A DNA stretch of 64,000 bases from Actinomycetota bacterium (GTDB lineage: Bacteria; Actinomycetota; Geothermincolia; Geothermincolales; RBG-13-55-18). The translations under genes were made by a program, and so were the position numbers. Under the pieces are notes generated by a model, which was not told the origin of the DNA, ran no database searches, and worked only from the letters and a program-made list of their open reading frames with translations. Positions 4,054-45,970 of the stretch are shown here, piece after piece. The DNA lies in NCBI GenBank assembly GCA_040757835.1, contig JBFLWJ010000003.1, forward strand, positions 146,960 through 210,959, in the 5' to 3' direction. Position 1 is the first letter of the stretch. The number at the start of each line of letters is the position of its first letter.

Positions 4054-4557
4054 TCATGGGAACATCAACGCCCTGTCCTCCTGGCCCGTGAAGTGCCTTA
4101 TCACCGGGTAGATGACCAGGGTGATCAGGGCGTTGTAAAGGGCCAGGCCGGCGATGACGCCGAAACTGAACGGGGGCCGCGGCTCCAGGCCCACCAGGGC
4201 CCAGGTGGCGAACTTCATTAACTCCTGCAGGATGGAGCCGAAGAAGACGATGATCATCGGCCAGATCACCGATTTGGAGATGACCCTCTGGCGCAGTTCC
4301 CCGCTGAAATAGCCGACGATGATCTTGGCGAAGGCCGAGACACCCACCACCGCGGTGGAGAAGATATCCTCCAGCAGGCCCGCACAGAAACCGAAGAGCG
4401 CCCCCTGTCCCGGGCCCTCGAAGAGCGCCCAGCAGATGGTGGCCACCAGCAGGATGTCCGGTTTCACCGCGCCTATGCCTATCTCCGGGGATACCGTGAG
4501 CTGGATGAGCAGGGCCACTACCAGCACCACGAAGAAGGTCAGCCTGCGGTGGACCAT
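4054..4557 (-). CDS. mreD: rod shape-determining protein MreD
   Basis: 167-aa small polytopic membrane protein directly after mreC. Confidence 0.8.
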   Translation of the reverse strand: MVHRRLTFFVVLVVALLIQLTVSPEIGIGAVKPDILLVATICWALFEGPGQGALFGFCAGLLEDIFSTAVVGVSAFAKIIVGYFSGELRQRVISKSVIWPMIIVFFGSILQELMKFATWALVGLEPRPPFSFGVIAGLALYNALITLVIYPVIRHFTGQEDRALMFP

Positions 4558-7084: not shown

Positions 7085-7127
7085 ATAAACCTCCGTTGTC
7101 TATAGCTTCCAGCAATAACTGTTCCGT

Positions 7128-7235
7128 GCGTACCCGTGCCAGGCCCGGCCGATCGGAATCGGCCGGGCGACTGGCACCGCCGCGTCGCCCTCCGGGCGCC
7201 GCTGTCGCCTACGCGCTTACGCGATGCAATCTATC
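7128..7235. repeat. copy D of an unrecognised structured intergenic element family ('S element'), inverted relative to copies A-C
   Basis: GTGCCAGGCC-CGGCCGATCGGAATCGGCCGGG-...GGCACCGCCGCG...CGCCCTCCGGGCG...CTTACGCGATGCAATC. Aligns at >80% (by eye) with the reverse complement of copy C (45592-45684). Lies in the folC-ndk spacer. Confidence 0.7.
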
Positions 7236-7262
7236 GTAACCTATTTTAGTAGTAGTTAGCGT

Positions 7263-8582
7263 TTATTCTGGGCGTAGCCCGAGGGCGCCGCGCGCCTCCC
7301 CCACCGTGTACAGCGAGCCGGTCACGCAGACCATGTCCGACACCGTCGCCATAGTGCGCGCGAACTTCACCGCCTCCGCCACGTCTTCCACCACCACGCA
7401 GTCATGCCCCATCTCCTTCACCAGGGCCGCCAGAGCGTGCGCCGGCATGGCGCGCTCGTCCGCGCTCTGAGTGACCACCGCCGTGGAGGCCAGGGGGAGG
7501 AGAAGCTCCAGCATGTTCCGCGCGTCCTTGTCCTCGAGTATTCCCACCACCAGGATGAGGTCGTCGTAGTCGAGGTCGTTGCTGATAACGTGCGCCAGCC
7601 TGCTCGCGCCGTCAGGGTTATGGGCCCCGTCGAGGAGTACCAGGGGATCGAGGGAGACCACCTCGAGGCGCCCCGGCGACTTCACCCTCTTCATCCCGGC
7701 CTCCACCTCCGTGGAGGACAGGGCCGAGAGCGAGCCCGCGTACGTCTCGCATGCCGCCACGGCACAGGCGGCGTTCATCGCCTGGTGCTCCCCCAGCAGG
7801 GGCACGAATAGTTCAGGATATTCCCGCAACAGGCCCTGGATGCCCACGGCCTGGCCTATTCTGCCCGTCTCCAGGCCGTAGGTCAGGTTATAGAGGAGCT
7901 GGAAGTCCCGGCCGAAGAGCCGGAGGGTGCTCCCCTTTTCATCGCAGGTTCGGGAGATCACCTCCAGGGCTGCCGGGTCGCTAACCGCGGAGATGACGTA
8001 ACTGTCCTCCTTGATGATGCCCGCCTTCTCGCAGGCGATCTTCTCCAGGGTCCCGCCCAGTTCGGCCACGTGGTCAAGGGCCACGCCAGTGATCACCTGC
8101 AGGTGCGAATCGACCAGGGTGGTGGCGTCCCACCTGCCCCCCAGCCCCACCTCGATCACGCCGACATCCACTTTGAGCGCCGCGAAGTGCACGAAGGCCA
8201 TGGCCGTGGTGACCTCGAAATAGCTCAGTGGGTCGCCGGTCTCCGCGTCCGTCTCCTCCACCTGCGGGATGATCCTCTCCAGCAGCGCCGCGAAATCGCG
8301 CTCCGGCACCGGCCTGCCGTTTATGCAGATGCGCTCGGTCACGGACTGCATGTGCGGCGACGTATAGCGAGCCACCTTCTTCCCGCTCACCTCGAGGATG
8401 GAGGAGATCATGCGCGCGGTGGAGGTCTTGCCGTTGGTGCCGGTTATATGGATGGAGGGGAACTCCAGCTGCGGCTCCCCCAGCTTGGAGCAGAGCAGCC
8501 GAATACGGTCCAGGCTGGGCTTGATGCCGTGCCGGGCCGCCTGCCCCAGATACCGCTCCGCCGCCTTGAAATCCACCATCAA
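7263..8582 (-). CDS. folC: bifunctional folylpolyglutamate synthase / dihydrofolate synthase
   Basis: 439 aa; Mur-ligase-family P-loop ITGTNGKTST, ...LLDGAHNPDG. Classic valS-folC adjacency. Confidence 0.9.
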   Translation of the reverse strand: MMVDFKAAERYLGQAARHGIKPSLDRIRLLCSKLGEPQLEFPSIHITGTNGKTSTARMISSILEVSGKKVARYTSPHMQSVTERICINGRPVPERDFAALLERIIPQVEETDAETGDPLSYFEVTTAMAFVHFAALKVDVGVIEVGLGGRWDATTLVDSHLQVITGVALDHVAELGGTLEKIACEKAGIIKEDSYVISAVSDPAALEVISRTCDEKGSTLRLFGRDFQLLYNLTYGLETGRIGQAVGIQGLLREYPELFVPLLGEHQAMNAACAVAACETYAGSLSALSSTEVEAGMKRVKSPGRLEVVSLDPLVLLDGAHNPDGASRLAHVISNDLDYDDLILVVGILEDKDARNMLELLLPLASTAVVTQSADERAMPAHALAALVKEMGHDCVVVEDVAEAVKFARTMATVSDMVCVTGSLYTVGEARGALGLRPE

Positions 8583-16431: not shown

Positions 16432-16519
16432 TGGTGCGAGAGGGGGGACTCGAACCCCCACGGTCATAAAACCACTGGGTCCTAAGCCCAGCGCGTCTAC
16501 CATTCCGCCACTCTCGCCC
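16432..16519 (-). tRNA. tRNA-Leu (anticodon TAG), long variable arm, encoded CCA
   Basis: rc = GGGCGAGAGTGGCGGAATGGTAGACGCGCTGGGCTTAGGACCCAGTGGTTTTATGACCGTGGGGGTTCGAGTCCCCCCTCTCGCACCA; cloverleaf with anticodon loop CU-UAG-GA. Confidence 0.9.
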
Positions 16520-16613
16520 GATTATCCGGGGTTCAAGAACGATAAATATACTACTACTTGCATAAAGACGAGGCAAACAGCCGCATCAGCGCCGCATCGG
16601 GTCACGACGGCCA

Positions 16614-16790
16614 GCATCGCGTAAGTAAGGTTTTCGCCTAGCGAAAGCCTCATTGCGGGAAGTGGAGCGACGTGGCAACCTCGATTGGGTCTTGCGCTGA
16701 AAAAATGGGGGGCTGGAGCGCGACGGCGCCAGTCGCCTGGACGATTCCGATCGTCCAGGCCTGGCACATATGCTCCGGGATGCAACGACC
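16614..16790. repeat. copy A of unrecognised structured intergenic element family ('S element'), long form
   Basis: ATCGCGTAAG...GGAGCGACGTGGCAACCTCGAT...GGAGCGCGACGGCGCC...CGCCTGGACGATTCCGATCGTCCAGGCCTGGCACATATGCTCCGGG. Between divergent tRNA-Leu and tRNA-Arg. Homologous to 36344-36500, 45592-45684 and inverted 7128-7235. Confidence 0.7.
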
Positions 16791-16832: not shown

Positions 16833-16908
16833 GCGCCTGTAGCTCAAAGGATAGAGCAGCGGACTTCTAATCCGCAGGTTGGAGGTTCGAGTCCTCCCAG
16901 GCGTGCCA
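16833..16908 (+). tRNA. tRNA-Arg (anticodon TCT), encoded CCA
   Basis: GCGCCTGTAGCTCAAAGGATAGAGCAGCGGACTTCTAATCCGCAGGTTGGAGGTTCGAGTCCTCCCAGGCGTGCCA; anticodon loop CU-TCT-AA. Confidence 0.9.
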
Positions 16909-20094: not shown

Positions 20095-20170
20095 GCGGGA
20101 GTAGCTCAGATGGAAGAGCGAGAGCCTTCCAAGCTCTAGGTCGCGGGTTCGAGGCCCGTCTCCCGCTCCA
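20095..20170 (+). tRNA. tRNA-Gly (anticodon TCC), encoded CCA; insertion target of a genomic islet
   Basis: GCGGGAGTAGCTCAGATGGAAGAGCGAGAGCCTTCCAAGCTCTAGGTCGCGGGTTCGAGGCCCGTCTCCCGCTCCA; anticodon loop CU-TCC-AA. Confidence 0.9.
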
Positions 20171-20176
20171 TTTTTA

Positions 20177-20590
20177 CTATTTTCTTGTGCTAAAGGAGAC
20201 GTGGGCCTCAGGGCTTCCGTCTATTCTTATTTCCCAACGGTACCTCTTTCCAGGCTCCAGCTTGAGATTGGTGAAATTGAGGGCCTGTTTTACGCTGATT
20301 GGGGAGCCAGGTGGTACATTTGGGGGACGCCCAGCATTGAAATTTCCCTCTACTATTACTGGTGATGAAGGCTCCCCGACCATAACTTTTTCACCATCTT
20401 CAGTTTGCAGCTCGAGTTCAAATCGATGGTCTTGATTCGTCTCTGTCCATCCTACCTTTATATCAACGGCAAGCCCCATATGGTTGATGAGTGCATTACA
20501 TATGTCCCATCCTCCACCAAGGATAAAGAATTTACCTTCCACAACTTCAGCGGCATCACAAAGCATCACCATTATCTCCAATTCAATCAC
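20177..20590 (-). CDS. hypothetical protein, third gene of the islet operon (translationally coupled to antitoxin via ATGA)
   Basis: 137 aa; start overlaps the upstream stop (ATGA at 20587-20590). Beta-rich sequence with no recognisable motif. Confidence 0.5.
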   Translation of the reverse strand: MIELEIMVMLCDAAEVVEGKFFILGGGWDICNALINHMGLAVDIKVGWTETNQDHRFELELQTEDGEKVMVGEPSSPVIVEGNFNAGRPPNVPPGSPISVKQALNFTNLKLEPGKRYRWEIRIDGSPEAHVSFSTRK

Positions 20591-21056
20591 CTCCCCTCCG
20601 TCATGTTGGAGTTGATGCTTATATCCCTAAGCTCTCCTTCGGTACTATCGAAGTTGACTATGGGATCATATTCTGCAGCATTTCCGGAAAAAGCTATGCT
20701 TCTGGTCACAAAGAATCTATACGGCTGGCCATATAGATTCTTGCTAACCAAGTTCTTAAGATCATAGATGCTGCTTTCCTGCTCTTCTATTCTCCTGCAT
20801 AGAATCTCGGCTAGCTTGAACGTTGGTACCTTTTCACTTTTCTTCAATAGCCCCTCTCTTATCATTTCTCTTGCCAAGGTTGACGTTGGCATGTTCATTT
20901 CTCTCGCTTGGTCCACAAGCATCCTCAGCAATTCGGCATCTATTTTCATACTAAACACGGTGGATTTCTCCCTGGCTGGTGCAACCTCCAGCTCGATTCC
21001 TCCAACTTCATCCCAACCTTCTTCAAACATTGTCTCTTCGTCGTCTGCAAACTTCA
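20587..21056 (-). CDS. BrnA-like ribbon-helix-helix antitoxin with ~80-aa C-terminal extension
   Basis: MKFADDEETMFEEGWDEV... then RHH region STVFSMKIDAELLRMLVDQAREMNMPTSTLAREMIREGL. Its ATG overlaps the toxin stop (ATGA 21053-21056). ORF-track start at 21084 is an upstream in-frame TTG. Confidence 0.65.
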
Positions 21057-21319
21057 TTTCTTTACCTCCATTGCGGTGATACAAAACCAGGTACCCTCTT
21101 CCCTGCTATCTGGATTAATGAATATCTTTAGCCTTCTCCCTCCACGAGTCTTCCCAATCACTTTGAAGCGATATCCGTGCTTGTGGCTGAATTCTGGAAT
21201 TATCGTTCTTTCTTCATCCTCAAAAATGACCTGCTCAATCTCTTCGTAATCAATATGGTGTTTCCTCTATAACTTGTCGATAGTGTCAAAAGTCCAGCTC
21301 AACCGTTCTATTCTATAGT
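21053..21319 (-). pseudogene. BrnT-like (DUF497) ribonuclease toxin interrupted by an in-frame amber codon
   Basis: Minus strand: ATG(21319) MVLHYRIERLSWTFDTIDKL-TAG(21257-21259)-RKHHIDYEEIEQVIFEDEERTIIPEFSHKHGYRFKVIGKTRGGRRLKIFINPDSREEGTWFCITAMEVKK-TGA. Matches the BrnT pattern WD..K...N..KHG..FEE...VF.D......R....G......L.V......IRIIS. No start codon downstream of the TAG. Confidence 0.6.
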
Positions 21320-21581
21320 GTAGAACCATCGATTCTCCTATAGTAATACCATAAGTATTACTATTATAGACATGTCTCGGCGCTTCTGCAACTGCTCCAA
21401 GAAAGGAGAAGGAAGTGGGTGAGGCGAGGAAGTCCAATGATGATAGTGAGGTGAACGGGGTGGCTTAGAGATGTGCTATAGACCAGAAGATGTGGTACTC
21501 TCCGGCAAGCTCATGATTATTTACACATCAAATATTAGTGCTACGAAGATGGCCTCCCGCTCCATTTTCTTCTCTCGCTGC

Positions 21582-28397: not shown

Positions 28398-28688
28398 CGC
28401 CCCACCTCCAGGCGTTTATCCGATCTCTGTTACTGGCTTCTGCCTGACATCAGCGGGCGGACCCAACCGTCGGTGCAGGTTGCGTCAGCTCGCTAACTTT
28501 ATTATCGGTGCATGTTTCAAAGTGCACCAGACAATCCGCGCGGTTTCTGTTTTTCCCGGTCCGCAGGCGCCATGGCATGGCACACAGCCTGCATGGACAC
28601 GTTTGGGGAGACGTCTCCCGGGGCTACCGGGCGCGTTTTATGCGCTGTTGCGGCTTGAGGTATGATAATGCTGCCGGAGGAGGAGATC

Positions 28689-29162
28689 ATGGGCAGAGTG
28701 AAGACCCTGGCTGAGAACCGCAAGGCCAGGCACGACTACCACATAGAAGAGAAGTTCGAGGCGGGCCTGGCCCTTCTGGGTTCCGAGGTCAAGTCCATCC
28801 GCGAGGGCAGGGCCAACCTTCGCGACAGCTTCGCCCGGCTGCGGGGAGGCGAGCTGTTCATCGAGAACATGCACATCGCCCCCTACAGCCACGGCGGCGC
28901 CTTCAACCACGAACCCCTGCGCGAGAAGAAGGTCCTCCTGCACAGACAGGAGATACAACGGCTTACCGGAAAGGTCGCCGAGAAGGGCTATACCCTGGTC
29001 CCGCTCAGCCTCTACCTGAACGAGAGGGGCAAGATAAAGGTCGAGCTGGGCCTGGCCCGCGGCAAGGCCCAGGCCGACCGGCGCCGCGACATCATGGAGA
29101 GGGAGGCCCGCCGCGACATGGAGAGGATGATGAAATCCAGCGGCAGAAGGCGCGAAGAGTGA
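28689..29162 (+). CDS. smpB: SsrA-binding protein SmpB
   Basis: MGRVKTLAENRKARHDYHIEEKFEAGLALLGSEVKSIR...; GGAGGAGG SD before this ATG (ORF-track start 28662 is upstream in-frame). Confidence 0.9.
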   Translation: MGRVKTLAENRKARHDYHIEEKFEAGLALLGSEVKSIREGRANLRDSFARLRGGELFIENMHIAPYSHGGAFNHEPLREKKVLLHRQEIQRLTGKVAEKGYTLVPLSLYLNERGKIKVELGLARGKAQADRRRDIMEREARRDMERMMKSSGRRREE

Positions 29163-29205: not shown

Positions 29206-29550
29206 GGGGGCGAAACGGCTTCGACAGGGATCGGCGGACAGCGCGGGAGCGAGCCGGGGGCCCGAGCCTCGTCAGCAATCGGGAAAACAAAATAAACGCT
29301 GACAGCGAGTTAGCACTGGCTGCGTAAGCGGCCCGTCCCTCTCCGGGGGGCCCGCGACCGGGGAAGGGGCGTCATGCAGCGGGATCACCGAGGCCCCACT
29401 CCCGTTAAGGCCGAGGGACAGCTTTCCGGGATAGCCGACGGCAGGCCTTTCGCCGGGCGCGCCGGCGGTGAAAAATAAGCGGCGAATACGCTCGTAGAGC
29501 CCACCTGGCCGGGTTTCTGGACGGGGGTTCGACTCCCCCCGCCTCCACCA
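29206..29550 (+). ncRNA. ssrA: tmRNA (ssrA)
   Basis: 5' GGGGGCGAAACGGCTTCGACAGGG pairs with 3' ...GGACGGGGGTTCGACTCCCCCCGCCTCCACCA (tRNA-like domain, T-arm GGTTCGACTCC). Internal tag ORF ...GCT GAC AGC GAG TTA GCA CTG GCT GCG TAA (...ADSELALAA*). Confidence 0.9.
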
Positions 29551-29610: not shown

Positions 29611-29691
29611 ACTTGCCATTACCAAAGGCCAGCGTAAGCACGCAGCTGTCGTTTCGTTATCCGTTCAGCATTGATGACGTCAGGAGGCCCT

Positions 29692-29880
29692 ATGCTGAAG
29701 TTCATCGAGGTCGTCGGGAGTTCGCCACTGGGCTATTCGGAGGCGGTCAGGGAAGCCGTGGAAGCCCTCATCGCCAGGGGCGAGGTAGTGCATTTCTTTC
29801 AGGTCGTGGAGGAGAGGGGCTCGGTCAGAGACGGCGAGATCAAGGAGTTCCAGGTCGTCCTCAAAGTGGCCGTCGAGTAG
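29692..29880 (+). CDS. dodecin family flavin-binding protein
   Basis: ~62 aa from Met (MLKFIEVVGSSPLGYSEAVREAVE...HFFQVVEERGSV...EFQVVLKVAVE), typical dodecin length and pattern. Confidence 0.7.
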   Translation: MLKFIEVVGSSPLGYSEAVREAVEALIARGEVVHFFQVVEERGSVRDGEIKEFQVVLKVAVE

Positions 29881-30129
29881 CGAGCCGACCGCGCATCGCA
29901 ATGCCGAAACCTCACAGCCGCCCGTCCGGGTGCCGTCTATATAAAACCATCCGACCCTGGAGCTCGCGCGTTCAGGCAACTCCTTCAGTAAAATCCCTGG
30001 CCCGAGATCCGGGGGTCGGTCTGAAGCGATTTTCGCGAGCAGTATATACGGACGAGGGCTCAGATCAGGATATGTGGACTGCGAGTGTTTCGCGAAGACC
30101 GTTACCCCCGGGCTTAGGCCGGTAAAGAA

Positions 30130-35197: not shown

Positions 35198-36299
35198 TTA
35201 ACGCGCGGCTTTCCAGCGCAGGTAGGCGTCTATGAGTTCGTCGAGGTCGCCGTCGAGCACCGCGTCCACGTTGCCTATCTCCAGGTCGGTGCGGTGGTCC
35301 TTGGCCATGCGGTAGGGGTGCAGCACGTAGGAGCGTATCTGGCTCCCGAAACCGATGCCCATCTTCTCCCCCCGCAGCTTCTCGATCTCCTTCTCGCGCT
35401 CGCGGCGGGCGAGGTCGGCGAGGCGGGCCTCGAGGATACGCATGGCCGTGGCGCGGTTGGATATCTGCGAGCGCTCGTTCTGGCACGACACCACCACTCC
35501 CGTGGGCAGGTGGGTGATGCGCACGGCGGAGTCGGTGACGTTGACGTGCTGCCCTCCAGCACCGCTCGAACGGTAGGTCTCGACCCGCAAGTCCTTGGGG
35601 TCGATCTCGATGCTCTCCTCCTTGTCCAGCATGGGGATCACGTCCAGGGACGCGAAGGAGGTGTGACGGCGGCTCGAGGCGTCGTAGGGGGATATGCGCA
35701 CCAGGCGGTGCACGCCTTTCTCGGAGAGGAAGAGCCCGTAAGCGAAGCGGCCGTGTACGGTGAAGGTGGCGCTCTTGATGCCGCCGCCCTCGCCCGGCTG
35801 CAGGTCGTTGAGATCGGCCTTGAAGCCGCGCGCGTCGGCCCAGCGCAAGTACATTCGCAGCAGCATCTCCGCCCAGTCCTGCGACTCCAGACCCCCGGCC
35901 CCGGGGTGGATGCTGACGATGGCGTCGTGGGAGTCGAACTCGCCCGAGAGCAGGCTCTCCTCCTCGAGGCGGTCCACCTCCCGCTGCAGCCTGGCTACAC
36001 CCTTCCCGATATCGGTGGTCAGGCTGGCATCGTTCTCGTCTTGCGCCAGTTGAGCGAGCTCCTCGAGTTCCCTCCGCTCCGACGCCAGCCTCTCCCAGGT
36101 CTCCACGGTGTCCTTTAAAGCCGAGAGCCGCCCCAGGACGCGGCGTGCGTTGTCCTGGTCGTCCCAGAGGTCCGGGCGGGCGGACTCTTTCTCCAACTCC
36201 TCCGCCTCCGCCCGCTTTCCCTCTATGTCAAAGATACTCCTTTATCTTGACCAGCCTTCCCGCGATCTCCTCCAGCTCGCTGCGGTAATCACTCAGCAC
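35198..36299 (-). CDS. prfB: peptide chain release factor 2, requires programmed +1 ribosomal frameshift
   Basis: Frame 0: GTG(36299) LSDYRSELEEIAGRLVKIKEYL then CTT-TGA-C. +1 frame continues DIEGKRAEAEELEKESARPDLWDD... through SPYD and GGQHVNVTDSAVRITHLPTGV (GGQ motif). ORF-track lists only the 332-aa downstream frame. Confidence 0.9.
36224..36245 (-). promoter_or_regulatory. RF2 autoregulatory +1 frameshift site: internal SD (AGGAG) + CUU UGA C
   Basis: Minus strand: AAAGGAGTATCTTTGACATAG; SD-like AGGAG 3 nt upstream of CUU, in-frame UGA followed by C. This is the canonical RF2 frameshift signature. Confidence 0.85.
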
Positions 36300-36343
36300 A
36301 TCTCTCTCCTTATCCCTATGTCTTTGCGCCTACTTGTCGCTTG

Positions 36344-36500
36344 TATCGCGTAAGCCAGCCCTTTCGCGAAGCGGAAGGCATATTGCGAGGAGGCGAAGCC
36401 GTCGTGGCAAGCTCGATAGACCGGCACGCCTCAACATGATGCCTCCTCGCGGCGGTGTCCAGCGCCAGTCCCGGCGCTTCCAGGCCTGACCTGGCACGTG
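36344..36500. repeat. copy B of 'S element' (long form), in the secA-prfB spacer
   Basis: TATCGCGTAAGCCAGCCCTTTCGCG...GCGAGGAGGC...GCCTCCTCGC...GGCGGTGTCCAGCGCCAGTCCCGGCGCTTCCAGGCCTGACCTGGCACGTGTACG. 3' end runs into the secA stop codon; 5' end is ~45 nt from the prfB GTG. Confidence 0.7.
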
Positions 36501-36507
36501 TACGTCC

Positions 36508-39123
36508 TCAGGATCCGCAACAATTCTTGTACTTCTTCCCGCTCCCGCAGGGGCAGGGGGCGTTTCGGCCCACCTTCTGGGAACGGGCGGCGGCCTTCTT
36601 CCCGCCGCCTTCCCTGCCCCCCTCCTCGACCACGCGCAGGGCTGGCCTCTCGTCGGCCCTCACCACCTTGACGTGGAACATGTAGCGCAGAAACTCCTCC
36701 TGGATGCCGGCGATGAGCTCCTGGAAGGTCGCGAAGGCCTCGTTCTGGTATTCCACCAGGGGATCGCGGCCCGCGAAGGAACGCAATCCCACGCTGTCGC
36801 GCAGGTGGTCCATGTCGTAAAGGTGGTCGCGCCATCGATTGTCGATGACCCGCAGCATGACCAGGCGTTCCAGCTCTCGCATATCGCGCCCCGACTCCGC
36901 GAACTCCGCCTCCCTCGCACCGTAGGCCTCGAGGGCATCCTCCACCAGGGCGGCCTCCAGTGCCCCGTAGGACACCGCCTCGAGGTCGATACTCCCGGGG
37001 TCGAAGCTCACCGGGTACAGAGCCTGCAGGCTGTGGAAGAGGCTCTCCATGTCCCAATCCGTAGGGTGATCACTGGGGTCGATGTGCCTCTCCAGGATGG
37101 CCGCGACGGCCTCGGGGATCATCTCCTCGGCGCGCGCATGCAGGTCCTCTCCCTGGAGCAGGCGCTCGCGCTCGGCATAGATAACCTCCCTCTGGGTGTT
37201 CATCACGTCGTCGTACTTGAGGAGGTTCTTGCGCACCTCGAAGTTGTTGGCCTCCACGTTCTTCTGGGCCGTCTCGATGGCCTTGGTGACCATCTTGTTG
37301 TCGATGGGCATGTCGTCCGGCAAACGCAGCCTGTCCATGAGCGAGGCTACCGTCGAGGAAGCGAAGATGCGCATGAGGTCGTCCTCCAGGGAGAGGTAGA
37401 AACGGGACAGTCCGGGGTCGCCCTGGCGCCCGGAGCGCCCGCGCAACTGGTTGTCAATGCGCCGCGCCTCGTGGCGTTCCGTCCCCAGCACATAGAGGCC
37501 TCCCGCCTCGACGACCTTCTTCTTCTCCTCCTCACACTCACGCCGCGTCTCCTCGAGGACCTCCGCGTATTCCTCCTCACTCACTTCCTCCCTCCCCGCC
37601 AGCTTCTGCCGGGCGAGCATTTCCGGGTTCCCACCCAGCATGATGTCGGTGCCGCGGCCGGCCATGTTGGTAGCTATGGTCACCGCCCCCAGGCGCCCCG
37701 CCTGGGCCACGATCTCCGCCTCGCGCGCGTGGTGCTTGGCGTTGAGGACCTGGTGGGGTATGCCCCTCTTCTTGAGCATTCCCGAGAGGCGCTCGGACTT
37801 CTCGATGGAGATGGTGCCCACCAGGACCGGCTGTCCTTTCTCATAGCAAGCGGCTATGTCCTCGACCACGGCTCTGAACTTGGCCTCCTCCCCCTTGTAG
37901 ATGAGGTCGTTCACGTCGTCGCGGACCATGGGCAGGTTGGTGGGTATCTCCACCACCTCCAGCCCGTATATCTCCTCGAACTCGCCGGCCTCGGTGGCCG
38001 CGGTCCCGGTCATGCCCGCCAGCTTGTCGTACATGCGGAAAAAGTTCTGAAGGGTGATGGTGGCCAGGGTCTGGTTCTCCTGCCGCACCTTGAGACCTTC
38101 CTTGGCCTCCACAGCCTGGTGCAGGCCGTCGCTCCAGCGGCGCCCGGGCATGAGGCGGCCGGTGAACTCGTCCACGATGACCACCTGCCCCTCCGTGACC
38201 ACGTAGTCCACGTCGCGGCGGTAATGTTCCTTTGCCTTGAGGGCGTTCTGCATGTGGTGGACCAGGGGGGTGTTGAGGTGGTCGTAGAGGTTCTCCAGCC
38301 CCAGTATCGTCTCCACCTTGTGGATGCCCTCCTCGGTGATGGAGACGGTGCGCGTCTTCTCCTCGATCTCGTAGTCCTCCCCCAGCTTCAGCCGCGGCGC
38401 CACCTGCGCGAACTGGCGGTAGAGGCGCGCCGACTCCTCGGCCGCCCCGGAGATGATCAGGGGGGTGCGCGCCTCGTCGATGAGGATGGAGTCGACCTCG
38501 TCCACTATGGCGTAATTGTGGCCCCGCTGCACCATGCGGTCCGGCCTTATCTCCAGGTTGTCCCGCAGGTAATCGAAGCCGAACTCGTTGTTGGTGCCAT
38601 AGGTGAGGTCCGCGCCGTAGGCCACCATGCGCTCTTCCTTGGGCATCTGGGCCTGGATGAGCCCCACGTCGAGGCCCAGGAACGAGTAGATGGCGCCCAT
38701 CCACTCGCTGTCGCGGCGGGCCAGGTAGTCGTTGACCGTAACCACGTGGACCCCCTTGCCCTCCAGGGCGTTGAGGTAGACGGCCAGGGTGGCCACCAGG
38801 GTCTTGCCCTCGCCCGTCTTCATCTCGGCGATCTTGCCCTGGTGGAGGACGATGCCCCCCATGATCTGCACGTCGAAATGGCGCTGTCCAAGGGTGCGCA
38901 CCGCCGCCTCCCTCACCGCGGCAAAGGCCTCCGGGAGCAGCTCGTCCAGGGTGGCCCCGTCCCGGATCCTCTCGCGGAACCGCTCCGTGCCGGCGCGCAG
39001 TTCGGCGTCGCTCATCCGCTGCACCTCGGGCTCCAGCGCGTTCACCGCCTGCACGACCTCGGCGAGCTGTTCCAGGCGCTTGCGCTCTCCCATGCGCAGT
39101 ACTTTTCCGAAGGCCTTGAGCAA
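36508..39123 (-). CDS. secA: preprotein translocase ATPase SecA
   Basis: 871 aa; DEAD-like motor motifs ([36 protein letters not shown]), C-terminal zinc-binding tail [15 protein letters not shown]. Confidence 0.95.
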
Positions 39124-42398: not shown

Positions 42399-42941
42399 TC
42401 ATCCTCCCGGTTCTATCAAACCGAAGTTCCCATCTCTTCTTCTATATACCACGTTGGTCTCCTCCGTCTCGGCGTTTATAAACACGTAGAAATCGTGGCC
42501 GAGGAGTTCCATCTGCAGGCAGGCCTCCTCGGGGATCATGGGCTTCAGCGGGAAACTCTTGGTCTTGACGATGGCCGCCTCGGTTTCCTCCTCTGACGCC
42601 GCGGCCGCCGATTCCTTGAAGGGGTTTTTAGCGTGGTGCGAACGGTCGATCATCTTCTGTTTTACCTTGCGCGCCTGGCGCTCCAGCTTGTTCGACACCA
42701 GGTCGATGGCCTGGTACATATCCACCGCCGACTCCCTGGCCCGGATGATGGGGCCGCTGGAGAAGACGGTCACCTCGACCACCTGGTTGTCCTGTATCTT
42801 GGGGTTCCTTTCGACGCTCATCTCGATCTCCGTCTTCAGGATGCGGTCGAGGTACTTCTCGACCCTGCTCACTTTCTCCAGGGCATATCCTCGCAACGCC
42901 TCGGTCACCTCTATGTTCTTGCCCTTGACGATGATCTGCAT
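42399..42941 (-). CDS. hpf: ribosome hibernation promoting factor (long HPF)
   Basis: Starts at Met13 of the ORF (MQIIVKGKNIEVTEALRGYALEKV...), S30AE/YfiA domain plus C-terminal dimerisation domain (...ACLQMELLGHDFYVFIN...). Confidence 0.9.
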   Translation of the reverse strand: MQIIVKGKNIEVTEALRGYALEKVSRVEKYLDRILKTEIEMSVERNPKIQDNQVVEVTVFSSGPIIRARESAVDMYQAIDLVSNKLERQARKVKQKMIDRSHHAKNPFKESAAAASEEETEAAIVKTKSFPLKPMIPEEACLQMELLGHDFYVFINAETEETNVVYRRRDGNFGLIEPGG

Positions 42942-43428
42942 CCCCCGCACTCCCTTCTCCTCCGATAAAAAACCCATACCAGGTTCAAGGGCGGTATGGG
43001 CCTTCTTCAGGACCTATTCGAAAAGCAAATCCCGGCCCCGGGCCTTAACCCGGCGCTTACGTATTCGACTCGCATAAGCCTAGCATACGTCCAACCCTCT
43101 GCCAACAAATGGCCCGAAAAGTGAAGGCCTCGAAACCCGGCTGACCTGGTCTTTGACCCCACACTCGCCTGCCGAGCGTCTCGCAGCGGAAGGGATCCCG
43201 CGCGGGCTTTGCCCGACCGCCACTAATGCGCTTCTCCGGTTTGTTCCGGGCAGGTCTTACCCCTAAGCCGCACCATGCTCACCAACCAAGAGTTGGCTTA
43301 CGTGGGTCGTTTCGCCTGCGGCTGGCATCGACTTTCAACCACAGACCCGGGCCGAAGCCTTCCCATACATTATAAGGTGAGCGCCTGTGATATGCACATG
43401 AACCGGCCTGTGCGTCCGAGTCACGGAG

Positions 43429-45510: not shown

Positions 45511-45591
45511 CGCAAACGCCCCACGCCCTTTTCTCCTCCCGGTTTTTGTCCTGCCGTGATTATAAGGTATATCGTCTGCCTCCGCTGATTG

Positions 45592-45684
45592 CATCGCGTA
45601 AGCGACAGCGACGCCCTGAGGGCGGCGCGGCGGTGTCCCAGCGCCTGGACATTTCCGAATGTCCAGGCCTGGCACGTGTACGTA
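45592..45684. repeat. copy C of 'S element' (short form), in the long 5' leader of the GH gene
   Basis: CATCGCGTAAGCGACAGCGACGCCCTGAGGGCGGCGCGGCGGTGTCCCAGCGCCTGGACATTTCCGAATGTCCAGGCCTGGCACGTGTACG. Confidence 0.7.
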
Positions 45685-45970
45685 CGGTGATAGTGGCCCG
45701 GGAAACTACCAGGTCGGCCGAAACTGTGCATAGAGATGGTTCATGGATAGCGATCCCGCCCGGGTGTCGCCCATACAAACCCCCCGGCAAGCACGGCTGC
45801 TTGCGGGAAAGGTCGGCAAGCCCGGTTCGTCAAGGCGTTCGGGCGACCTCGTCTGTGCTGCCCCTTGCCCGGCGAGCAAGGTGCTCGGAGGAGCCTGCGA
45901 CGACGACCAGCCTTGTCGCCGGGCCGCTAAAACGGTATTGGAGTGAGCCCGAACGCCTCTCCGTCCCGGA

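Follow-up and report, generated by a model that had tools for sequence, protein, structure and literature searches.

The stretch analysed here, termed the window, comprises 64,000 nucleotides (nt) of contig JBFLWJ010000003.1 from a bacterium of the Geothermincolia (Actinomycetota; assembly GCA_040757835.1) and has a G+C content of 64%. Four of its spacers hold copies, labelled A to D, of a structured non-coding repeat. Copy A lies between tRNA-Leu (16432-16517, -) and tRNA-Arg (16833-16908, +), copy B between secA and prfB, copy C between cysC and a gene for a 748-amino-acid protein, and copy D between folC and ndk. Pfam and ARAGORN checks identified these neighbours as a folC-type Mur ligase, ndk, secA, prfB, cysC (APS kinase) and the tRNA-Leu(-)/tRNA-Arg(+) pair, in agreement with a sequence-only reading of the window that had described the element; the 748-residue protein, which that reading had taken for the product of a GH gene, was without a Pfam match.

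The sequence-only reading had reported four homologous segments. An nhmmer profile built from them recovered these four segments from the window at E = 2e-46 to 8e-23, with no further match at E < 0.1. A covariance model, run with filters off, likewise gave four significant matches (E = 1e-37, 3e-31, 7e-15 and 1e-7), at 45581-45690(-), 7121-7237(+), 16697-16782(-) and 36409-36512(-); in a run on the wider loci, the match to copy A extended to 16604-16782. All remaining model matches in the window had E >= 0.04, and those at E 0.04-0.2 that overlapped a copy were internal palindromic sub-hits. The motif ATCGCGTAAG marks one end of the element and CCTGGCACRTRT the other, as had been proposed, and each occurs 3-4 times against 0-0.4 expected from dinucleotide shuffles. 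A GGYGYCC-AGCGCC block, also noted earlier, is present as well. The density is thus 4 copies per 64 kb.

We refer to the strand on which the element was originally presented as the described strand; it is the plus strand of the window for copies A, B and C and the minus strand for copy D. On this strand, the unit consists of a short leader (ACGnnnCGACAGnnUGC), the hairpins H3, H2 and H1, and a tail, GYRUACGU. H3 is a 5-bp hairpin with a GNAA cap. H2 is variable: it can be short, it can be long with a GNA triloop and a conserved pyrimidine-pyrimidine mismatch, or it can be replaced by a conserved module of ~65-90 nt, which contains an extra covarying hairpin and the conserved sequence UUGCGAGGAGGCGAAGCCGACGYGGCAAGCUCGAU. 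H1 is a long, bulged hairpin whose 10-bp base is invariant and whose loop is UCCG; this base is the inverted repeat GTGCCAGGCC/GGCCTGGCAC, which is therefore internal, not a pair of element ends. Copies differ in length at two bulges of H1 and at the tips of this hairpin and H2. On the opposite strand, the 5' part of the consensus reads cGUAYRC; GUGCCAGGCC-[arms]-UUCGGAAa-[arms]-GGC(g)CUGG(ga)CAC; CG, and the remainder YCGCG-[H2]-CGCUG; UCGC-UU(A/U)C-GCGA; U GCAnnCUGUCG.

Copy C (45581-45690, +; 117.4 bits) is a short form near the family consensus and lies antisense to both neighbouring genes, with H3 at 45593-45606 (loop GUAA), H2 at 45608-45628 and H1 at 45633-45675 (loop UCCG). Copy D, the other short form, was delimited by comparing empty and filled sites: the whole inserted segment spans 167 nt (7096-7262, -), between the folC stop codon (7263-7265) and the ribosome-binding site of ndk (7090-7095), and its core (7121-7237) scores 98.3 bits in the covariance model. 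H1 of this copy (7136-7177, -) has the conserved base GTGCCAGGCC/GGC(ga)CTGGCAC around covarying arms CGGCCGAT/ATCGGCCG and, on the described strand, a UCCG loop; H2 (7180-7204, -) is of the long type with the pyrimidine-pyrimidine mismatch; and the H3 region (7205-7225, -) contains a 9-nt insertion relative to the model and an 8-nt internal duplication, GCGTAAGC directly followed by GCGTAGGC on the described strand. Copies A and B are long forms, and both hold the extra internal module of ~65 nt that the sequence-only reading had ascribed to them. In copy A (16604-16785, +; 53 bits over 16604-16782), an H3-like start (16616-16629) is followed by the extra hairpin (~16629-16649), the conserved module (~16650-16722) and H1 (16726-16767). 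Copy B (36336-36512, +) fills the secA-prfB spacer, so that its described strand is antisense to both genes, and its H1 is degenerate (36455-36497). The 10-bp long-range pairing that had been assigned to this copy is present (GCGAGGAGGC/GCCTCCTCGC, 36385-36394 with 36441-36450) but specific to it, being missing from all six other module-bearing long-form copies. A further stretch, spotted by eye at 30023-30069 (+; GAAGCGATTTTCGCGAGCAGTATATACGGACGAGGGCUCAGAUCAGG), may be a decayed repeat fragment: an H3-like GCGATTTTCGCGAGC is followed by GCTCAGATC, resembling H3 and the trailer of array units such as those in locus L061, and a homologous stretch occurs in metagenome locus L118. Neither nhmmer nor the covariance model gave a significant match there.

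The arms around the TTCCGA sequence of the main hairpin had been said to differ between copies A, C and D while staying complementary. This is the case, and the underlying signal of compensatory change with conserved loops is far stronger than four copies could show. A MAFFT alignment of 67 copies supported an all-local three-hairpin fold in which 17 of 29 pairs had changed on both sides, including 8 of 11 in the inner stem of H1 and 8 of 11 in H2; in H3, one pair showed compensatory change (UA 55, GC 5, CG 1). In this alignment 90.6% of cells were paired, compared with 30-53% when partners were slid, and no shuffle reached the observed values. Among 117 model-aligned copies, 23 of 29 pairs were doubly changed and 90.5% of cells were paired (30-51% when slid), in an alignment that was fitted to the covariance model and hence leans towards it. 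These data show that the hairpins are maintained by compensatory change, and H1 and H2 are strongly supported by it.

The loops of the described strand belong to a small set of motifs. H3 was capped by a GNRA loop in 84 of 84 copies (GUAA 47, GAAA 35, GCAA 1, GGAA 1), the long-type H2 by a GNA loop in 25 of 28 (GGA 10, GAA 9, GCA 4, GUA 2; three exceptions), and H1 by UCCG in 94 of 113. That the GNRA and GNA loops vary only at their N position suggests that a single strand of the described polarity is folded, either as RNA or as DNA.

To place the repeat in a wider context, we ran an exact-pattern scan over a collection with one genome per species, outside which the window's own genome falls. 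The scan returned 87 stretches, 77 of them in nine bins whose only label is Actinomycetota or Actinobacteria bacterium; ten more were scattered over unrelated taxa, and the covariance model found no copy in ten chance-match loci from other phyla. In ~700 kb, made up of the pattern-match loci of the nine Actinomycetota bins, ndk loci and the window, the model identified 117 copies. The best flanking matches to the window in the collection were ~85% identical in DNA, and those relatives of the window's Ndk that share 70-78% identity with it carry the names Candidatus Geothermincolales or Geothermincolia; this Ndk also has a 100% identical counterpart in an NCBI bin of Actinomycetota. A second scan, of metagenomes, relied on another part of the element, the H3-H2 junction, and gave at least 120 loci; at least 83 bona fide copies were found in 70 of the 120 loci listed, and some loci held more distant variants. 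Together, the contigs of relatives' genomes and the metagenome contigs contain more than 190 copies. As far as sampled, the family is restricted to uncultured Actinomycetota related to Candidatus Geothermincolia. Eight metagenome loci (L133, L134, L135, L146, L186, L193, L218 and L221) have the H3-H2 start (…CTGC ATCGCGWAAGCGACAGCG CCG…) followed by different downstream hairpins, which suggests a superfamily wider than the model captures.

A scan of the window at the Rfam gathering thresholds and E-value scans of copies A and C returned no family at threshold; the repeat, which the sequence-only reading had not recognised, is absent from Rfam 15. Protein coding was rejected: variants differ by 1-, 2- or 5-nt insertions and deletions in bulges and hairpins, so there is no consistent reading frame, and the short open reading frame (ORF) in the long-form module is unconserved (11 codons in copy B, ~40 in locus L088). 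A phage origin was likewise discarded, since two scans of viral contigs yielded chance matches only.

The distribution of copies over spacers is not even. Spacer classes were taken from crude gene calls guided by G+C content at third codon positions (GC3). In the first sample, 23 copies lay in convergent, 5 in divergent and 54 in co-directional spacers; in the independent metagenome sample, the corresponding numbers of clusters were 21, 7 and 28. All spacers in the same loci comprised 148 convergent, 139 divergent and 545 co-directional ones. Of the occupied sites, ~32% are thus convergent spacers, which constitute 18% of the total (~1.8-fold enriched), and ~9% are divergent, compared with 17% of the total, a halving, although divergent spacers are the longest. 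Copies accumulate beside the 3' ends of genes and between cistrons, and few lie in divergent promoter regions. They also recur in the ribosomal protein L1/L10-rpoB region of several genomes (L035, L047, L050, L055 and L166). In 31 of 93 copies, the stop codon of a same-strand gene precedes the AUCGCG anchor by 9-44 nt, and both flanks are A-enriched just beyond the conserved ends.

Orientation followed none of the genomic features that we compared. In co-directional spacers, the described strand was sense or antisense in a ratio of 23:13 (arrays collapsed manually) in one sample and 16:12 (clusters) in the other, which is not significant (39:25 when pooled). There was no link to the majority gene strand (29:26) or to local GC skew, a noisy proxy for the replication strand (44:41 over 85 clusters; G-rich strand in 26 of 49 where |skew| >= 0.04). 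Tandem arrays with a period of ~97-130 nt were present in five loci (L084, L061, L016, L009 and L065), and three more (L032, L074 and L025) held arrays of truncated units. Many copies have a GCKCAGA(Y) direct repeat in the 5' leader and the 3' trailer, which adjacent array units share. For 30 of 67 copies, the most similar copy was in the same genome, compared with ~11 expected. Some subfamilies were seen in one genome only, among them CCUACAC...GUGAAGG with an A.A mismatch in H1, found in the CAYHAT bin alone.

Comparison of equivalent spacers between related species revealed considerable turnover. At the folC-ndk site, locus L090 (Ndk 93% identical) is empty, with the folC TAA directly followed by T-GGAGG-ATG of ndk. 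The window holds its 167-nt short form (7096-7262) between GAATAA and CGGAGG, and in L088 and L089 (Ndk 95%) a long form of ~244 nt, whose H1 arms differ, occupies the site with identical junctions. The presence of different variants at one site implies gene conversion or replacement. The secA-prfB spacer contains three variants in three species, short forms in L028 and L076 against the long copy B. Between ndk and mreB, the site is filled in L058, gives weak matches only in L088 and has no copy in the window; downstream of the transfer-messenger RNA (tmRNA) gene, L066 has two copies, L037 one truncated copy and the window none. In a convergent spacer common to L054, L067 and L077, two canonical U-tract terminators bracket the element, which is inverted in L077 and present in duplicate in L054. 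Hence, copies have been gained, lost, truncated, tandemly amplified and swapped for other variants between related species. The terminators, AAAAGGGCGCGG...CCGCGCCCTTTT, lie on both sides of the repeat (L067, ~4260-4330 and 4100-4147; same spacer in L054 and L077). Their presence beside the repeat indicates that the lineage does use U-tract terminators, and such near-identical palindromes could mediate inversion of the intervening segment.

Turnover is accompanied by high similarity. Copies at the same site were 73-94% identical between species, compared with 50-71% at four-fold degenerate sites of the adjacent genes, and unrelated copy pairs averaged 82% identity. Such conservation is far above neutral, which means that selection, gene conversion or recent spread must act, rather than slow decay.

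We interpret the element as a new family of non-coding, multicopy, structured interspersed extragenic repeats, of the same general kind as REP/BIME, BOX, ERIC and Correia, and assign this interpretation a probability of roughly 60%. The copies have the properties that define such repeats: they are non-coding, multicopy, extragenic and structure-forming, and they vary between related genomes. The sequence-only reading had implied a discrete structured RNA with a locus-specific role beside essential genes. That implication is unsupported, the element being a high-copy dispersed repeat found in either orientation, with arrays, truncations and site turnover; overall, the earlier interpretation is partly supported.

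As a mechanism, we propose that a trans-acting activity, which would be encoded elsewhere in the genome, recognises a folded single strand (DNA or RNA) together with the invariant base of H1 and spreads or homogenises the repeat. Recombination between copies may contribute, and copies would persist only where insertion spares promoters and coding sequence. Transcribed within neighbouring mRNAs, the stable hairpins would probably be 3'-exonuclease barriers or processing sites, a role that has been reported for REP, ERIC and BOX.

Several results weigh against an interspersed repeat of this kind. ORFs near copies were clustered in ~600 kb and then in a further 850 kb of DNA (~1.5 Mb of flanking DNA in total), and recurrent families, together with several genes situated between copies, were compared with Pfam. 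The ORFs checked included no transposase, recombinase or reverse transcriptase. The sequence-only reading had recommended a search for a partner gene, and none appeared among these flanking genes; the recurrent families were housekeeping and metabolic or large paralogous ones (SpoIIE-GAF-PAS, acyl-CoA synthetase, CoA transferase, L1/L10/RpoB, TetR/MarR regulators). Empty-site and flank-profile comparisons showed no terminal inverted repeats at the true ends, which share at most ACGT, and no target duplication of >= 5 nt was found beyond the shuffled control: the longest words shared by left and right flanks equalled that control, except for the family-internal GCGCAGA repeat and array artefacts, and a shorter duplication of 2-3 nt may exist. 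Mobility is thus deduced from distribution rather than from mechanism. By the same token, there was no clear match to the end of a known insertion sequence (IS) or miniature inverted-repeat transposable element (MITE), which had been named as the observation that would make the repeat a simple transposon remnant. In addition, that GNRA and GNA loops vary only at N is consistent with selection on an RNA fold. Wobble pairs, counted as a guide to the active strand, gave no consistent picture: in the seed alignment of 67 copies, opposite-strand A.C (described-strand G.U) outnumbered G.U by 46 to 9, a contrast that dissolved in the larger, model-fitted alignment of 117 (67 versus 39; columns 12 versus 12). 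Lastly, the occupation of shared spacers and the above-neutral conservation could mean that each copy is selected for a host function.

That last point leads to the main rival, the view of the sequence-only reading, in which the element is a multicopy cis-acting structured RNA. On the described strand it would have a compact three-helix fold, its GNRA tetraloop possibly docking into the bulged H1 helix, and each copy would be selected for transcript processing, stability or termination. The strong covariation argues for it, as do the GNRA, GNA and UNCG loops that vary only at N positions, the length variation at hairpin tips and bulges, the conservation of shared-site copies well above that of four-fold degenerate sites, the repeated occurrence between housekeeping genes, for instance in the secA-prfB spacer and the rplJ/rpoB region, and the rarity in divergent promoter spacers. 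It is, however, at odds with the near-random orientation relative to co-directional genes (39:25 over two samples), with the position of three of the four window copies, which are not downstream of a co-directional gene on the described strand, and with L067, where the element lies beyond canonical terminators on both sides. Sites that are empty or differently filled in close relatives and arrays of truncated units also speak against it, and GNA and GNRA loops are stable in single-stranded DNA as well. We consider this explanation unlikely on balance. Distinctly unlikely, in our estimate, is the broader proposition that the repeat is an RNA-level entity and not a DNA parasite: a three-helix RNA with a bulged, receptor-like helix, kept in place by selection at each of a hundred or more loci in a genome, which would constitute a new multicopy cis-acting RNA class, or an RNA-mediated (retro-type) mobile element, with catalysis through a twister-sister-like core of the opposite strand as a further possibility.

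The stability of these loops in DNA would also fit a site that acts at the DNA level, where a protein would bind or recombine the folded strand or the H1 base and RNA would play no part. Candidates for the protein are an HUH/Y1 transposase (REP-RAYT, IS200/IS605 derivatives), a tyrosine recombinase (integron attC) or a nucleoid protein. The element has no ORF and no terminal inverted repeats, its hairpins have conserved bulged bases and the 10-bp stem base is invariant, it occurs in either orientation to transcription, and its flanks are A-rich, with one empty site ending in GAATAA; the A enrichment is without a sharp motif. Elements that transpose via the lagging-strand template, such as IS608 and ISDra2, show a replication-strand bias, whereas no orientation bias to GC skew was seen here (44:41). 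The left and right hairpins are unlike, the GTAG palindrome and inverted pairs of REP/BIME and the GTTRRRY core of attC are missing, and no such enzyme gene was among those checked near copies. A purely DNA-level site is, in our judgement, more doubtful still than an RNA-level entity.

We also followed up a resemblance of the opposite strand to twister-sister self-cleaving ribozymes, which would make the repeat a putative ribozyme-bearing element. Rfam RF02681 aligns end to end, with the same helix order and similar internal-loop letters, at 16.8 bits for copy C (window minus strand) and at 25.6 and 23.4 bits for copies in L084 (E = 0.002 and 0.008 in a 391-nt search), and conserved blocks of the family sit on L1 internal-loop positions (GCCAG versus GCAAG, GCUUAC versus GCUCAU). 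The solved twister-sister ribozyme tolerates C62U, and its A7 is not conserved (PMC5660989). All of these scores are nevertheless below the gathering score of 34, and the gathering scan of the window gave no match. In 58 of 63 copies, the P2 helix lacks its middle pair, and P1 shows no variation; the bases that the ribozyme model places in P2 and L1 form the local H3, with its compensatory changes (UA 55, GC 5, CG 1); and columns 62-90 covary (UA 11, GC 6) in a manner incompatible with P4. The loop equivalent to SL4 carries insertions and deletions (CUGGGACAC, CUGGACAC, CUGGCAC), and its sequence complements the 5' block. U takes the place of A63, the nucleotide 3' of the scissile bond, which is required (PMC5660989), in 35 of 84 copies, and the stable tetraloop motifs are on the other strand. 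As the fold, twister-sister was rejected on these grounds, since covariation supports a different, all-local fold. Minimal twister-sister-like cores, however, work without SL4 and show partial activity with an A-to-U change (PMC11620745). Because such cores tolerate some deviations, we retain a very slim residual chance that the opposite strand encodes a ribozyme.

Among known systems, REP/BIME of Enterobacteria and Pseudomonas resemble the repeat in being high-copy, extragenic and non-coding, in occupying 3' and intercistronic spacers in either orientation, in showing stem covariation with conserved bases, and in filling the same spacers of relatives with different compositions. REP, however, is a single imperfect palindrome of 20-40 nt after GTAG, typically in inverted pairs, whereas the repeat spans 100-180 nt with three unlike hairpins, lacks GTAG, forms direct tandem arrays and has no RAYT-like gene among those checked in the flanking ~1.5 Mb. 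BOX of Streptococcus pneumoniae is likewise modular and non-coding, with a variable internal module and predicted stable structures; it occurs at about a hundred copies per genome, and no mobilising enzyme, terminal inverted repeat or target duplication is known for it. It belongs to another phylum and has no sequence relationship to the repeat, and it varies in boxB number, whereas the repeat swaps one hairpin (short, long or module). ERIC/IRU and Correia (CREE/NEMIS) are interspersed repeats of ~100-150 nt whose transcripts fold into long hairpins and can affect how stable neighbouring mRNAs are or how they are processed. Unlike the repeat, each is essentially one long imperfect palindrome, and Correia additionally has 26-bp terminal inverted repeats and a TA duplication, neither of which was found here. 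PATE (IS200/IS605-derived) and the guide-RNA scaffolds of TnpB/IscB share with the repeat the lack of terminal inverted repeats, strand-asymmetric subterminal hairpins and possibly an A-rich flank; they also lack target duplications, of which none of >= 5 nt was found in the repeat. The repeat differs in its dissimilar end hairpins, the lack of replication-strand bias and the lack of a tnpA, tnpB or iscB gene among those checked nearby, and no omega-RNA family of Rfam matches it. An integron attC site was rejected because the ends lack GTTRRRY and the neighbours are housekeeping genes, an intrinsic terminator because there is no U run (the two strands end in different conserved tails, GYRUACGU and GCAnnCUGUCG), and a MITE because the element ends lack terminal inverted repeats. 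The repeat thus lacks defining features of REP/BIME, BOX, ERIC, Correia, MITE, IS200/IS605, attC, terminator and twister-sister alike.

The window contains further features outside the repeat. A full-length raiA-motif RNA (43132-43355, -) scores 167 bits against a gathering score of 101; the gene immediately downstream (42399-42977, -) encodes a ribosome hibernation factor with S30AE/HPF domains, the usual context of this motif. The smpB gene (28662-29162, +) is followed at once by the tmRNA gene (29206-29550, +; tag peptide ADSELALAA), and a small conserved ORF of unassigned function, also present in L066 and L037, lies downstream at ~29680-29890. Directly after tRNA-Gly (20095-20170), a low-GC islet (~20100-21500; 48-52% versus 64%) contains two low-GC3 ORFs, one encoding a DUF6941 protein, and looks like a small insert acquired at a tRNA gene. 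The prfB gene (35198-36310, -) appears split: a short upstream ORF, which starts at ~36305, precedes the long one, an arrangement in line with the programmed +1 frameshift of RF2. Plus-strand GC skew is below zero along nearly the whole window (cumulative -2.9 over 64 kb), and the majority of genes are on the minus strand, which together suggest that the window probably lies in a single replichore with the minus strand leading.

The repeat family is thereby documented in an Actinomycetota lineage of class rank that metagenomes alone have revealed, and for which we found no mobile or repeated elements described in the literature. A copy sits at, or no more than ~100 nt from, an end of several contigs (L021, L039, L055 and L058 among them), so the repeat may contribute to assembly breaks in this lineage. 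Above-neutral conservation with no visible transposase implies either a mobilising or homogenising activity encoded elsewhere or a host function of the copies in intercistronic spacers. Should the element prove to be a functional RNA selected in place, or a ribozyme, it would represent a new class of RNA of which hundreds of natural variants are already available. With its clean covariation and its GNRA, GNA and UNCG loops, the family offers a test case for distinguishing RNA-level from single-stranded-DNA-level selection in repeats.

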